DNA from: Promethearchaeota archaeon | GTDB taxonomy: Archaea; Asgardarchaeota; Heimdallarchaeia; Hodarchaeales; Hodarchaeaceae | Length of the DNA stretch: 64,000 nucleotides | NCBI GenBank assembly: GCA_048938105.1 | Contig: JBHLMN010000001.1 | Location: 224,001-288,000 of the forward strand | Direction: 5' to 3' | Shown here: one piece after another, positions 37,571 through 42,983 of the stretch | Layout of the letters: each line of letters begins with the position of its first letter | How positions within the stretch are numbered: position 1 is the first letter of the stretch | Notes under the pieces: generated by a model | What the model was told of the DNA's origin: nothing | Databases searched by the model: none | What the model saw: the letters and a program-made list of their open reading frames with translations, nothing else | Translations under genes and position numbers: made by a program

Positions 37571-38395
37571 ATGGCTGAAAAAGAAGAACCTCAAGAAGAA
37601 GCGACACCCATTACTGAGATAGAACGGAAAATTACCGTAGACCTTTGGAAAACAAAACTACACGGGGAAATTGTAGGAATAAAACAAAAAGAAGAATATA
37701 TGGCTAAATCCCGTCAATTTACTAGAGATCTTGAACTGATTGGTGAAGTTAAGGAAAAAAAGAAAGGGGAAGAAGAGACCATTGGATATGTAGGTTATCG
37801 AAAAGGGCTATGGGATGATGAAGAAGATAAATTAGAAAGACGCTTAGTAATTAAACTATTTTCGAAATCAATGTATTATCAAGGCACCCTAGAAGAAATG
37901 GTCGGTCGGGAGTTCACCCGTTCATTATCCGCACGACATGATTTTCCTAGTTTTAACTTAATGATTGATGATTATGAATACTTAATTCCGCTAAATAAGA
38001 TTCGTGGCGGAAAGTTCGTTCCAGAATGGTTTGTTTTCCGTATTGATGATGAAGAAGGATTTATTCCGATTATTTTAAAGCATAAGATGGGACTTGGAAT
38101 CGATTATCGGGTAGTTCACGGAATAGGTGACACACAATTTGGTAAAATTGATGGGAAAAAGTTCGATGTAGGGGGACGATATGACATCAGCCTTAAATCC
38201 ACGGATGAACGTTTGGTTGATAATGTTCTTGTACGAGTATTAATCCTCTTTGCAGCTTCTTTGAAGTTTCATGAAGAAATTTTTAAGAAAATTAAGAAGG
38301 GGACGAAAAAAATGAGAAAGAATGAATGGCAACCAACACTTTCGAATGAAGAAAAACTTCTTCGACGTAATCCACGAGCGATTCTACGGAAATAA
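37571..38395 (+). CDS. Hypothetical protein, possible tubby/LURP-one/scramblase-like beta-barrel
   Basis: Run of beta-strand-like segments ending GKIDGKKFDVGGRYDI, followed by a hydrophobic helix LVRVLILFAASL. Confidence 0.55.
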   Translation: MAEKEEPQEEATPITEIERKITVDLWKTKLHGEIVGIKQKEEYMAKSRQFTRDLELIGEVKEKKKGEEETIGYVGYRKGLWDDEEDKLERRLVIKLFSKSMYYQGTLEEMVGREFTRSLSARHDFPSFNLMIDDYEYLIPLNKIRGGKFVPEWFVFRIDDEEGFIPIILKHKMGLGIDYRVVHGIGDTQFGKIDGKKFDVGGRYDISLKSTDERLVDNVLVRVLILFAASLKFHEEIFKKIKKGTKKMRKNEWQPTLSNEEKLLRRNPRAILRK

Positions 38396-38413
38396 ATCAC
38401 AGGAGTCTTATCA

Positions 38414-39094
38414 TTGATCCCTGAAGATGAGAGCTTAGAATTCGTAATCGAACATCTCAAGGATATGATTCAAGAACAAGCAGATAAAAAAATAGAAAAA
38501 GTATCAGATCTGACAGATATTCTTTCTAATTTTATGGCCACATTTTTAATAGTGGTTGATGCGTTAATTTCAAGCAGTCAGTCAAGATTTGGGGCAATTG
38601 ATGAAAAATTAGCTGAATTTGAGGATCTTCTACAGGGTACTTCTATTAAAGGGTTATCAGAGCCATCAGAAATATCGGAGAAAAGGCCTATTGAAGAAAA
38701 AAAACAACCAATAGAAGAGTCCGTAGTTAAATCATCCAAAACCCCGCCGATTCCATCGAGTGATGTTGTAATCTCTCCACCACCTCCACCGCCCCCTTCC
38801 CCTTTCCCTTCCATAACCGTTGCGGAAGAACAGAAACCTGTAGTTGAAACCACAGAAATCATGGAAGATGAAATCACTGAAGACGAAGCCATCGAAACAT
38901 CAGAAGATATGGAAGAAATGGAGGTGGAAGATCTTGCAGCATTTGCATTTCAACGGCGCGAAAAAAAAGAAAAAGTCCCTCCCTCTCGTCAAGTCGATTC
39001 AGGACTTAGTGCAGGATCACTCAAATTGGAATTAATGAAAGAACTAAAAAAGAAATTCAGTAGTGAAAAAGACACTCAAAATGAATCTAATTGA
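38414..39094 (+). CDS. Protein with a helical N-terminus, polyproline tract, acidic region and C-terminal amphipathic helix
   Basis: SPPPPPPPSPFP (P7 at 38777-38797), EDEITEDEAIETSEDMEEME, SLKLELMKELKKKF. Confidence 0.75.
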   Translation: MIPEDESLEFVIEHLKDMIQEQADKKIEKVSDLTDILSNFMATFLIVVDALISSSQSRFGAIDEKLAEFEDLLQGTSIKGLSEPSEISEKRPIEEKKQPIEESVVKSSKTPPIPSSDVVISPPPPPPPSPFPSITVAEEQKPVVETTEIMEDEITEDEAIETSEDMEEMEVEDLAAFAFQRREKKEKVPPSRQVDSGLSAGSLKLELMKELKKKFSSEKDTQNESN

Positions 39095-39844
39095 AATCTA
39101 TCAAGATGGGGGGATTCATATCTCCAAGGAGATTTTTAGCAAGCAAAGAGCAACCTTCAGTCCCTCCTGAAGCAATATGTCATTAGGTATGTGAAAACAA
39201 CCACAATTGATCCAGTATTTGTCATACTTCTATTCAGACACCATAAAAAGACACAATAAAATCGAATCCCAATTAATATGAGAGGAACAGTACCTCATTT
39301 ACACTTTCTTTCTTTATTATAGAACCCCCACTTGATTTAAAAAAAGCAGGTTAGTATTGAAACTGATTATCCTCAAGAAATGGATCTAAAGACCACTCCT
39401 TAAGGATGTCAGAGAGAGTGCGATATATATATCGTTTTCCGTAATTCAAAGCCGTCTTTAATAATCCTTCAATGGATAGGGCATCATCAGACAAAAGAGA
39501 TCCTTCGTACCTAGCGAGGTGGAAGGGGTTCTTAAAGGTAACGAAATAGGCCAGAATTACAGAAGAGTATTACTGTCTACATAGGAAGGTATCTCAACAG
39601 ATTTGTGAAATTAATACCAGAAAAAAAGTAACGACTAAAATGACGCTTTAATGATGAAGAACTTGCCTGAGAATAATGGAGTCTCTGAAAAATCTAAAAT
39701 TATGGAAGGGAAAACCAATTAAAATCTAGGTCTAGTTCTCCTCTTACTGTTCCCCTCTGTAAGTCTTAATTGTATTCAGAAAATGGAAGCTGATCAAAGT
39801 AGTGACGCCATAAGGCTATATAATGAATTTTCTGGCCGAATCAG

Positions 39845-40255
39845 CTAGTATAGTATCACATTCTGGCCATCTGAATCATCTTCGGTTGGTGTCGCGGTTT
39901 TAATGCCAGACGAAAGAATTCGGATTAAGTCATTTCGAGTTAATAGAAAGATTCGAATTCTTTCCGCGAGAGATCGTGCTGGGTCGGAAAAGAGATTTGT
40001 GACAATGAGCATTTTTGAAAGAAGGCGATTGTTTTTCATGATCTTTTCGGCACGAATAATGATATCTACGCCAACAGCACGTTTCCAGTCTTTGATCATA
40101 ACTCCAATACCCTCATTTTCATCACCATTTTGGATGATGAGGTCAACATTTTCATTCCGATAATTTTGTACGCCGTGGCTAACAATTAAACCACGTTGGC
40201 GACAGTACTCGAGCGTTAGCTCTTCTAATCCAAGTGAATCATAATTAATCTTCAT
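39845..40255 (-). CDS. Small Mrr-like PD-(D/E)xK restriction-endonuclease-fold protein
   Basis: LEEL...RG...VDLII...VMIKDWKRAVGVDII...LIVTNLFSDPA...IFLLTR. Start at MKINY overlaps the upstream stop. Confidence 0.75.
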   Translation of the reverse strand: MKINYDSLGLEELTLEYCRQRGLIVSHGVQNYRNENVDLIIQNGDENEGIGVMIKDWKRAVGVDIIIRAEKIMKNNRLLSKMLIVTNLFSDPARSLAERIRIFLLTRNDLIRILSSGIKTATPTEDDSDGQNVILY

Positions 40256-41336
40256 GGTAAATCCCCTCTGGGGTGATTCGAGCATCCTTAGTAATGGATG
40301 ATTCAAACGCCAGATGCTCTAAAATGCCAAAGATCGCTCTATTAGGGCGATAGGCTTTCTCACGTTTATCTCGATCTGTTGATTGCTCATAGATCAAATT
40401 AGAATTTAATAAATCAGCTAAATGATGACTAATTGTACTTTTAGTCTTATTCATCATGTAAGTAAGCTCTTTATGAATGATATATTCACGTCTATCAAGT
40501 TCGTTCTGAACCTGAACCTCTCGAACAAGTATTTCGCGGAGAATAGAAATCTTACTTCGTGGAAAACTGCTTAAAACTTTGGGGTTAATTCCAAAGGTAA
40601 AACGCAAACCGTCTGATCCCAGATAGAAATGCTCTTTCAGAATTTGAATAGCAACACCAGGATTACCTAAAGCAAGGGAAGCAATATTCGAAATGGTTGT
40701 ATCAGTAATATGGGAAGAATCTTGCTTTGTGGCACAGACATTTAAACGTCGTTGAAGAAGATGCTCAATTTCAGTCCTGGTAAGGGAAGGCATAACCAAA
40801 AAGTGACGATATGAGATGTCACCAGTCGGAATACACAGGCGACGATAGATTTCAAATTCAGTGCTATCCATGATTGCAATGATTTTAGGGGAGGGAGAGG
40901 AAGAAGACGAATTCAAACTTAATAGGGTCTTATGTAAACGAAAAGCATTATCAAGAAAGAGGATATCGTCAGATTGCACATTAGTGTTGAAAAGGTGTGA
41001 AGCATCCTGATAAATAGTGTTTAATTTATGATAATGTCGAAATTCTTCAAAAATGCGGGCAAAGATTGTTTTACCAGACCCTCGAGGGCCTTTGAGGAAG
41101 AGAATGTCAGAAGGAGAGTCTTGAATAAATTCGATAATCTTGATAATGAGGGATTTGAATTGCGGATTTGTCTCGCCATAAAACGCCATAGGTTGGTGGA
41201 GAGGGAGGAGAGGATCACAGGGATCACACTGATAACCTAATTGCACTAGCTGCTTCCGTTGTTTTCGTTGGATTAAGTCAGACATGGCTGATTCAAATAG
41301 GGTGCCCGGGGGAAGATCATCACGGTCATGACTCAT
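40245..41336 (-). CDS. P-loop (AAA+-like) ATPase with C-terminal ArsR-like winged HTH
   Basis: Walker A GPRGSGKT, Walker B ILFLDN, GNPG, KELTYMMNKTKSTISHHLADLLNSNLI...REKAYR. Confidence 0.8.
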   Translation of the reverse strand: MSHDRDDLPPGTLFESAMSDLIQRKQRKQLVQLGYQCDPCDPLLPLHQPMAFYGETNPQFKSLIIKIIEFIQDSPSDILFLKGPRGSGKTIFARIFEEFRHYHKLNTIYQDASHLFNTNVQSDDILFLDNAFRLHKTLLSLNSSSSSPSPKIIAIMDSTEFEIYRRLCIPTGDISYRHFLVMPSLTRTEIEHLLQRRLNVCATKQDSSHITDTTISNIASLALGNPGVAIQILKEHFYLGSDGLRFTFGINPKVLSSFPRSKISILREILVREVQVQNELDRREYIIHKELTYMMNKTKSTISHHLADLLNSNLIYEQSTDRDKREKAYRPNRAIFGILEHLAFESSITKDARITPEGIYHED

Positions 41337-42658
41337 GGGGACTCCCTCCTAGCAACAAGAATGGTGGATAGCTTGATATCATATTTCTTGGGTTTGAGGC
41401 GATGGAAGACAGTGATAATTTCCAAGGCGCTAGCGATGTGGGAATCCCAATCAATACAAATTATCTTTGAACGAGCGTCAACCACATCGTCGATCGCTGA
41501 TAAGATAGGAACGGGTAAAGAGGATGTTAGAGGTTTGAGATGGTAATTCATGGTAGACAGATTAACACCCAATGCATTTGCAAGAGAAGTGCTACGTAAA
41601 CCATCCACACCCGTGTTTGGGAAGAAGTAGCGTTCCCGAAGTTGATGATTAAGGAGTAAAAAAATAATCTCTCGCCGTTTCGCTGTAAGAAGACTTGCTA
41701 TTTCCTCGTCAGCATTATTGTCTATAGATTCAACTAAACGAACAACTAAATCATAACCTAACCGCTGTATTAAGGGTTTGATTGTATCTATTGTTGCTTT
41801 ATCAAGGTCTTGTAAGATTAATTCGTGCAAACAAAACGAAGCAAATTGTAATGCGAGTAATGGGATCCCTAAACTGTGATCTGCAATTAATTCGATGATT
41901 TCTTGTGAAAAAAAGTTGGTAGGGAGGCGAGCAACTTTGATACGCTGAGATAATAGTTTCATTATTTCGTATTTGGAAAATACTGGGAAAAAGAAGTGGC
42001 GAGGATGAAAAAAGGTAAGAAAAGATCGAGAGAGTTCAAGATATTCATCCTCCAAAAGAACAGTCAAGGTCAAACTATTTACAAAACCAATAACAATGAC
42101 ACCATGCTGCGCTTGAGTTTCAATTTCAGTAATAAACTCCCTAATACGGGGAATCGCAGCTGTACCAGTGATAGTATAATCTAAGTTGTTAATGAAAATG
42201 ATGAGAGGCTTCTCAACAAGTTGAATTCGATTGAGAAAATCTTCATATGTTTCTAAGACTTTAGTAGAGGAACTGAAAGGCTCTAATATCTCACGAGGTT
42301 CACGCCAATCAGATAAATCGGTATATAAAGTGTCATAATCTTGAAAACCAATGTGATCCCATTCACGGTCGAAATGACGGGCTAAAGAAGATTTACCACA
42401 GCCTCGCAAACCATGAGCCAGAAGATGTCGAAACGGGGACTGAGAATCTTCAAATAAACGAATCGCATTCCCAATACGAATGGCAAAGTCGTATAGAACA
42501 TCCTCGCGCTCAATTAGAAAGTCAGGATTATGGGGATCAATATCAGGGCTGAAAGGGTCTTGGGTGAGACCAAAACGTTCAAACGCGGATTCTTTAACAA
42601 GCTTGCCAGAACGGCCAGCTTTTAAGGCCTCACGAAGCCGGTCAGCCAACTTAGTCAC
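41333..42658 (-). CDS. P-loop (AAA+/ExeA/Cdc6-like) ATPase with C-terminal winged HTH
   Basis: FERFGLTQDPFS, Walker A GLRGCGKSS, degenerate Walker B IIFINNLD, GIP, SLANALGVNLSTMNYHLKPL. GTG start at 42658 after an AGGTG RBS. Confidence 0.8.
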   Translation of the reverse strand: MTKLADRLREALKAGRSGKLVKESAFERFGLTQDPFSPDIDPHNPDFLIEREDVLYDFAIRIGNAIRLFEDSQSPFRHLLAHGLRGCGKSSLARHFDREWDHIGFQDYDTLYTDLSDWREPREILEPFSSSTKVLETYEDFLNRIQLVEKPLIIFINNLDYTITGTAAIPRIREFITEIETQAQHGVIVIGFVNSLTLTVLLEDEYLELSRSFLTFFHPRHFFFPVFSKYEIMKLLSQRIKVARLPTNFFSQEIIELIADHSLGIPLLALQFASFCLHELILQDLDKATIDTIKPLIQRLGYDLVVRLVESIDNNADEEIASLLTAKRREIIFLLLNHQLRERYFFPNTGVDGLRSTSLANALGVNLSTMNYHLKPLTSSLPVPILSAIDDVVDARSKIICIDWDSHIASALEIITVFHRLKPKKYDIKLSTILVARRESP

Positions 42659-42684
42659 GAGATACAGACACCTACGCAAGCGAT

Positions 42685-42714
42685 GATTCGCGAGAATCGA
42701 GCTTATAAAGTCGA
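42685..42714 (-). promoter_or_regulatory. Putative TATA-box promoter with an overlapping palindromic operator for the ATPase operon
   Basis: TTTATAAG (minus strand) lies inside the near-palindrome TCGAGCTTATAAAGTCGA. The inverted repeat GATTC-GCGA-GAATC (42685-42698) is just downstream. Confidence 0.45.
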
Positions 42715-42983
42715 GAAGATTGGAATGAAATGAGGAAATAATGGTGAACGAGGAGGAAAGGGCAGTCACTCACACAGGAGAGGGCAGGAGGAGTGAAGAG
42801 GGGCACGAGATAAGCTCGCCCGCATCTTTTCGAACTAATCGAACCATTCCTTATAAACCTAACTCTAGGCGCTTCTTTATAAATAAAATTCATTCCCTTA
42901 GATACAAAGTAACTATTAGGTCTCGTTTTATAACTTAATATTAATTACGATATCATTACAAAGTCATCATTATCGAACTAACT

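Follow-up and report, generated by a model that had tools for sequence, protein, structure and literature searches.

A predicted tubby-type barrel gene followed by what may be the remains of an optional two-gene add-on in a Hodarchaeales archaeon

The window analyzed here is a 64,000-nucleotide (nt) stretch of contig JBHLMN010000001.1 (positions 224,001 to 288,000, forward strand), and belongs to a 5.85-Mb, AT-rich genome of the Hodarchaeales type (Heimdall-group Asgard archaea). At positions 37571 to 39094, it carries two adjacent genes, here called P1 and P2. The reading we favor, to which we assign a probability of about 0.45, is that this locus consists of one core gene, P1, coding for a predicted tubby-type barrel, and of the remains of an optional add-on made up of P2, which encodes a modular polyproline protein, and of a third gene, P3, which is a pseudogene in this genome. 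In the original prediction, P1 and P2 were taken to be a two-gene unit pairing a membrane-lipid-binding tubby/scramblase-like barrel with a primitive actin regulator. The adjacency and the single orientation of the two genes stand, but P1 occurs throughout the Asgard archaea, usually without P2, and P2 travels with P3.

Organization of the locus

The genes and the spacer have the following window coordinates:
37571..38395, + strand: P1, 274 amino acids (aa), from the ATG at 37571 to the stop at 38395, of the same length as its orthologues
38396..38413, + strand: spacer of 18 nt with a GGAG ribosome-binding motif and without a T-run
38414..39094, + strand: P2, 226 aa, TTG start, genus-specific, mostly disordered, with four modules
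39081..39259, + strand: P3 pseudogene, with an ATG overlapping the end of P2; three-frame translation gives a frameshift in a G-run, an in-frame TAG and a truncation

The open reading frames (ORFs) of P1 and P2 both lie on the + strand and are 18 nt apart, as had been described; no T-run separates them, and a T5 run is present 3' of P2. The GGAG motif is located 8 nt upstream of the TTG of P2, and the P2 orthologues share the start M/L-IPD-ESLEF. The spacing between the two genes is nearly identical at loci L014, L018, and L032, while the frames abut or overlap at L015, and P1 and P2 carry adjacent locus tags in two public records. The homologues are labelled Hodarchaeales or Heimdallarchaeota. 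P1 and P2 are probably read from one transcript. A gene coding for a Hef nuclease-helicase is divergent from P1 and upstream of it in all 20 P1 loci of the genus.

P1 is predicted to adopt a tubby/LURP1-type fold

The AlphaFold2 model of P1, built on a 45-row alignment, has a predicted local distance difference test score (pLDDT) of 84.8 and a predicted template modelling score of 0.85. It consists of 12 strands followed by a long helix of 32 residues (218-249), the first half of which is hydrophobic (VLVRVLILFAASL) and the second half basic. In an exhaustive VIA search with this model, tubby (1i7e) was found at Z 10.6 (root-mean-square deviation 3.1 over 156 aligned residues) and At5g01750 at Z 10.2, the next fold being at Z 7.2. 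In a second-look VIA search, the top five entries were 2fim, 3c5n, 1i7e, 1zxu, and 1c8z, all tubby, TULP1, or At5g01750 structures (Z 10.1-10.8; next Z 6.8), to which 144-174 residues of P1 were aligned. The model and these Z scores bear out the tubby/scramblase-like barrel that had been proposed for P1. The Foldseek comparison with tubby/LURP1 suggested at that time gave a weak result when used alone (tubby 1c8z at rank 14, probability 0.60), and it was the VIA searches that gave a clear one. The assignment of P1 to the tubby/LURP1-type barrels is therefore supported, as a predicted and not a solved structure.

The features shared with the Tubby C-terminal domain, TULP1, and At5g01750 are the 12-strand barrel and the long C-terminal helix, and the Z scores are clearly above those of other folds. 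The helix follows the last strand and falls within the range matched to the tubby chains (model residues up to 233-239), as judged from the match range only. P1 differs from the tubby/LURP1-like proteins in having additional helices at 29-46 and 111-121 and a conserved tail, E..L..NPR (residues 259-274, window about 38345-38392), which is invariant across the archaeal and bacterial relatives and looks like a docking or capping motif. The basic residues K46, R48, R77, R91, and K95 are conserved in the P1 alignment. As regards the Pfam families of the tubby-like superfamily (Tub, LOR/DUF567, and Scramblase), P1 has no sequence-model match: neither these nor any other Pfam or NCBIfam family matched it at E <= 1, and the LOR family PF04525 has no match in the genome of the window. 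Searching the PDB sequences with the P1 profile gave chance matches or none, and nothing usable came from PADLOC and PHROGs for P1 or P2, or from Pfam and NCBIfam for P2. In the ESM Atlas, P1 matched an LOR cluster at 0.88, which we take as a lead only.

P1 is present in 66 of the 82 genomes of the class and in 208 of the 300 Asgard genomes sampled, nearly always in a single copy, and some of its relatives carry bacterial labels. Canonical LOR proteins, on the other hand, were found in 126 of the 300 Asgard genomes and in none of the 19 genomes of the genus or in that of the window. A gene coding for a Ras/Rab-like small GTPase adjoins P1 at loci L040, L042, and L034, in another Heimdall family, and at L019 and L024, in the same genus; at L040 and L042, it is located immediately upstream on the same strand, and may be a functional neighbor of the barrel. 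At L039 and L041, in another Heimdall family, a gene for a DEAH-type helicase lies 3' of P1 on the same strand, overlapping it or within about 50 nt of it.

Modules of P2 and their conservation

P2 is a real protein-coding gene and its product is modular. All the features originally noted in the sequence are present: a helical N-terminus, a PPIP motif (residues 111-114), a run of seven prolines (P7, 122-128), an acidic stretch (about 145-173), and a C-terminal LKK helix (SLKLELMKELKKKF, 202-215). The AlphaFold2 model of P2 (32-row alignment, mean pLDDT 61) has helices at 4-23 and 30-76, a disordered region at 80-162, and helices at 171-186 and 203-218. The four modules are as follows:
38414..38653, + strand: residues 1-80, helical hairpin (helices 4-23 and 30-76, near-invariant columns, pLDDT 75-87)
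38744..38809, + strand: residues 111-132, PPIP motif and SPPPPPPPSPFP proline tract, inside the disordered linker
38915..38971, + strand: residues 168-186, acidic and then hydrophobic helix EMEVEDLAAFAFQRREKKE (helix 171-186), unique in the genome
39017..39067, + strand: residues 202-218, basic amphipathic end helix SLKLELMKELKKKFSSE (helix 203-218), unique in the genome

The alignment shows that these modules are separated by variable, indel-rich linkers. The hairpin is the slowest-evolving part, with ratios of nonsynonymous to synonymous substitution rates (dN/dS) of 0.04-0.30, as compared with 0.10-0.37 for the whole of P2 (10 of 15 pairs, dS unsaturated). The invariant residues are E170, V171, E172, L174, A178, F179, and R182 in the third module and S202, L203, K204, L207, M208, E210, L211, K213, K214, and F215 in the end helix. 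The family amounts to 32 protein clusters, with 14 representatives among 1.84 billion proteins. All 32 clusters retain the proline tract together with the blocks EVEDLAA-AF and S-L-K-x-E-L-M-x-E-L-K-K-K-F, and the much more distant relatives P0111 and P0117 have all four modules; the tract varies in length from five to nine prolines (P5-P9) in the orthologues and is doubled in P0117. Non-conservation of the polyproline tract and the terminal helix in orthologues had been named as the result that would tell against the original prediction, and the opposite was observed.

Long proline runs are rare in this genome: runs of at least six prolines were found in seven of the 25,442 stop-to-stop ORFs of at least 50 aa, four of these seven being at least 100 aa long, and P2 is one of three proteins of at least 100 aa with at least seven consecutive prolines. 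The two others (L043:129-1844, + strand, and L045:98-1132, - strand) are paralogues of each other (E 5e-23) and unrelated to P2; in both, a common block follows the proline run and zinc-ribbon motifs are present, and one of them has a sub-threshold DUF7130 match. When the genome was scanned with module hidden Markov models and motifs for a second carrier of the P2 modules, only P2 was found. The 8000 candidates scored included no longer or fused form of P2, although this is weak evidence. The PDB sequence searches with the P2 profile and with the P2 tail (residues 160-226) yielded chance or proline-run matches, or none, and the ESM Atlas gave nothing above 0.77 for P2. Foldseek searches with the low-confidence P2 model returned generic helical hairpins at E > 1 and chains of the WAVE complex at TM scores of 0.14-0.19 and root-mean-square deviations above 23, which are meaningless.

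P2 was found in a single genus and has probably been lost repeatedly

When the whole class was searched, P2 turned up in 8 of the 20 other genomes of the genus to which the window belongs, and in none of the 61 genomes outside it. Among the 20 P1 loci of the genus, P2 is intact and directly after P1 at six (at one of which it is cut by the contig end), is present as a remnant at two, and is absent at 11; at the remaining one, it cannot be judged since the contig ends. Wherever P2 was found, it directly follows P1: this holds for the six intact copies, the two remnants, and the only metagenome locus recovered, L070. As to the conservation of the gene pair, this invariable position of P2 favors the pairing; P2 is intact at 6 of 20 loci. 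In the P1 tree, P2 carriers occupy at least three branches and the remnants a fourth, a pattern most simply explained by an ancestral presence of P2 and its repeated loss. The P2 of the window departs from the consensus at 12 of 91 conserved columns, which is the largest number among the 32 members.

The third gene, P3, was recognized at L070, where it codes for 137 aa and its ATG overlaps the last codons of P2. It is also located 3' of P2 in genomes G058, G056, and G051, and the start of P3 overlaps the end of P2 at L015, L031, and L070. The intact copies (L070:3632-4042; L015:447-854, - strand; L031:2987-3400) encode 136-140 aa in the relatives. In the window, the frame opened by the ATG at 39081 reads MNLIEIYQDGG before the frameshift, a P3 profile matches positions 39113-39223 (E 3.2e-8, one TAG), and recognizable sequence is lost after about 39223. 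Within the class, matches to the P3 profile were confined to genomes of this genus that have, or once had, P2 (5 of 20, and the genome of the window). The states of P3 are graded: three genomes have an intact copy, that of G057 contains one stop, and the gene is reduced to a remnant in G064, where P2 is a remnant as well, and to a 13-residue trace in G059.

P3 can be classed, weakly and from its sequence, as a small TPR-like protein. Its first 30 residues align to the TPR motif of consensus TPR designs and of the SycD-type chaperone, these proteins making up 8 of 10 PDB hits, all of them at weak E values of 0.2-10; in addition, the Pfam TPR_6 and TPR_7 models each matched one P3 member, also weakly (E 0.12-0.4).

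Proposed organization and its rivals

We suggest that P1 is a soluble tubby-type barrel, mostly encoded by a single-copy core gene across the Asgard archaea, in which the long C-terminal helix should fill the barrel, as in tubby. By analogy with its tubby, TULP, and scramblase relatives, the most likely role of P1 is to bind the head group of an anionic lipid or to associate with a membrane; we infer that the contact with the lipid would be made by K46, R48, R77, R91, and K95, together with the basic outer half of the long helix. P2 would be a flexible adaptor, composed of a conserved N-terminal hairpin, for which self-pairing or docking on P1 is most likely, of a tether rich in prolines, and of two short conserved docking helices. 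In the ancestral state, the stop of P2 would overlap the start of P3. TPR proteins are a class of peptide-gripping proteins, and P3 would be the most economical receptor for one of the P2 helices, with P1 or a proline-binding protein as possible other partners. The P2-P3 add-on would be undergoing piecemeal loss within the genus, P3 being dead in the present genome and P2 intact but the most diverged copy known. Of all this, the coding status of the genes, the modelled fold, the conservation of the modules, the synteny, and the decay come from the data, while the lipid role and all the binding steps are inferred.

A comparable layout exists in phospholipid scramblase 1, where a proline-rich N-terminal region is fused to a tubby-like barrel. 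Both systems pair a proline-rich protein-docking segment with a tubby-like barrel, a likeness by layout. Unlike in scramblase 1, the proline-rich part is here encoded by a separate, downstream, and optional gene, and P1 has no predicted membrane-spanning end.

Several findings weigh against the reading of P1 as a tubby/LURP1-type core gene with a P2-P3 add-on. P1 occurs without P2 at 11 of the 20 loci of its own genus and in all the other families searched, and no column of the P1 alignment separates the six carriers of P2 from the 11 non-carriers, which speaks against a surface of P1 adapted to P2. The alignment of the P1 family with 20 Asgard LOR proteins by hhalign reached a probability of 29% over 48 columns. 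The TPR assignment of P3 comes from sub-threshold matches alone. Lastly, P2 is under purifying selection in three genomes where P3 is broken or gone (dN/dS 0.27-0.37); P3 therefore cannot be the sole partner of P2. Taken together, the lack of any P1 column tracking P2 and the persistence of P2 without P3 mean that neither partner is obligatory.

An alternative explanation is that P2 and P3 form a self-contained accessory pair which landed behind P1 and is read through from the P1 promoter with no functional tie to the barrel. The pair lies as a cassette between conserved flanks, P1 on one side and a small convergent ORF on the other (15 of 20 loci), its presence is patchy, no P1 column tracks it, and P1 has other neighbors in other families. 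Nevertheless, P2 was found solely directly after P1 (six intact copies, two remnants, and L070), and the tight spacer bearing the ribosome-binding site has been retained in deep-branching members of the genus, and we consider such a pair to be rather unlikely.

It is less probable still that the P2 of this genome is a relic undergoing decay, with hardly any function or none. Its partner P3 is a pseudogene here, its 12 departures at the 91 conserved columns are the most in the family, and the dN/dS values are higher in the trio lacking P3 (0.27-0.37) than in the other pairs (0.10-0.18). These values are all well below 1, however, the reading frame is intact with all the length changes in-frame, and the four modules are still recognizable.

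The actin reading of P2

The original prediction of an actin nucleation-promoting factor was not upheld in the case of P2. According to this explanation, the proline tract would recruit profilin-actin and the end helix would grip an actin monomer in the manner of WH2, VASP, or WASP, with P1 serving as the membrane address. What speaks for it, apart from the conservation of the module order in all 32 clusters and in P0111 and P0117, is that the host has an actin (one Pfam-Actin match, L001:1474-2616, E 3e-132) and a profilin-like ORF (L002:1501-1869, 122 aa) which scores 22.6 bits, below the Pfam cut-off of 25, and that P2 belongs to the three proteins of at least 100 aa with at least seven prolines in this genome. 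The resemblance to WH2, WASP/WAVE WCA, and Ena/VASP proteins lies in the shared order of a helical region, an XPPPPP tract, and a short amphipathic LKK helix. According to PMC8410842, the profilin of Heimdall LC3 binds a VASP proline peptide weakly (dissociation constant 0.3-3.3 mM), and the identity of the native ligands of Asgard profilins is a question raised there.

The details do not fit this explanation. In WH2, an amphipathic helix is followed by a short linker and an extended LKK(T/V). The P2 tail reads LM-x-E-LKKKF, with two residues between LM and the L of LKK and a K after LKK, and this LKK is located inside the predicted helix 203-218, without any linker of the WH2 type. The Pfam WH2 model (PF02205) matched neither P2 nor any of the 32 family members at E <= 10; a six-frame WH2 scan of the whole genome, also at E <= 10, gave four background hits at other places and none at P2. 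No WH1/EVH1 match was found in P2 or its family. The WCA region of WASP/WAVE has a central helix and a Trp-bearing acidic tail after WH2, and works with Arp2/3 in the host. The P2 acidic block (145-173), on the contrary, precedes the end helix and is thus on the wrong side, LKK is not set off from the helix, and P2 contains no Trp. Beyond the one Pfam-Actin match, no Arp2 or Arp3 was seen in the genome, the Arp2/3 accessory subunits not having been searched for, and no Arp2/3 partner for a factor of the WCA type is therefore evident. Ena/VASP proteins have an N-terminal EVH1 and a C-terminal tetramerizing coil, whereas the helical region of P2 is N-terminal and does not correspond to this coil. 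Fusions of P2 to actin-binding domains were not found among the 8000 scored candidates, and none of the three P2 modules recurs in another protein of the genome. Although the host has actin, the family occurs in a single genus and its loss is frequent. The genes neighboring P2 are non-cytoskeletal.

The evidence for actin is one of layout only, and we regard P2 as quite unlikely to be a primitive actin regulator. The chances seem slightly poorer again that P2 is the native polyproline ligand of a Hodarchaeales profilin, with its end helix holding actin, as a minimal archaeal counterpart of VASP/WASP which P1 would bring to the membrane and P3 would tune. Matches of P2 relatives to CCDC53, a WASH subunit (14 of 32, best E 0.0023), and to DED (17 of 32, best E 0.00067) are sub-threshold and were put down to noise from coiled coils or sequence composition. 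When the 21 genomes of the genus were scanned in six frames with PF10152, other ORFs were matched in nine of them, never a P2 locus, and matches were also obtained in 6 of 14 control genomes. As far as titles and abstracts show, the papers found on Asgard archaea, actin, and nucleation-promoting factors describe no archaeal factor, and nothing relevant was found on tubby in combination with Asgard archaea. The main text of PMC12962969 makes no mention of tubby, WH2, WASH, Arp2, scramblase, or nucleation.

The weakest alternative is that P2 is an ESCRT-type adaptor, its end helix or proline motif docking on the MIT domain of Vps4, which we consider very unlikely: MIM1 has the spacing (D/E)xxLxxRLxxL(K/R), the leucines of the end helix at i, i+4, and i+8 misfit it in a check made by eye, and no ESCRT gene is located nearby.

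Neighboring genes

The neighbors of the locus in the window code for the Hef nuclease-helicase, an Mrr-like nuclease, and AAA/winged helix-turn-helix (wHTH) proteins, and are thus of a DNA-repair or defence-like kind. At 39845-42769 on the - strand, a gene for an Mrr-type restriction nuclease domain protein is followed by two genes for AAA-plus-wHTH proteins, the tails of which gave weak matches of the CARF or Csa3 type. The 478-aa homologue is encoded on the strand of P1 in several relatives, which indicates that the block is inverted in the window. The small convergent ORF is located at 39354-39569 on the - strand, is unannotated, and has no ATG in frame in the window. Its conserved core (about 39354-39464), ...L(V/I)K(T/S)ALNYGK(R/K)Y...L(K/R)EWSLD..LE(D/E), is kept at 15 of the 20 loci of the genus, with or without P2 and P3.

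Implications

The graded decay of P2 and P3 shows that adaptor genes of this sort are gained and lost quickly, and calls for caution in reading single copies as ancestral eukaryote-like machinery. As one of the very few long polyproline proteins in its genome, P2 is a cheap candidate ligand for an Asgard profilin; if the actin reading were true, it would mean that a membrane-addressed, profilin-fed assembly of actin exists in the archaeal lineage nearest to the eukaryotes. P1, for its part, represents an unannotated protein family with a predicted tubby fold, which roughly two thirds of the sampled Asgard genomes encode. Eukaryotic tubby-fold proteins read membrane phosphoinositides and scramble lipids, and P1 may provide a clean target for studying how Asgard cells address proteins to membranes.

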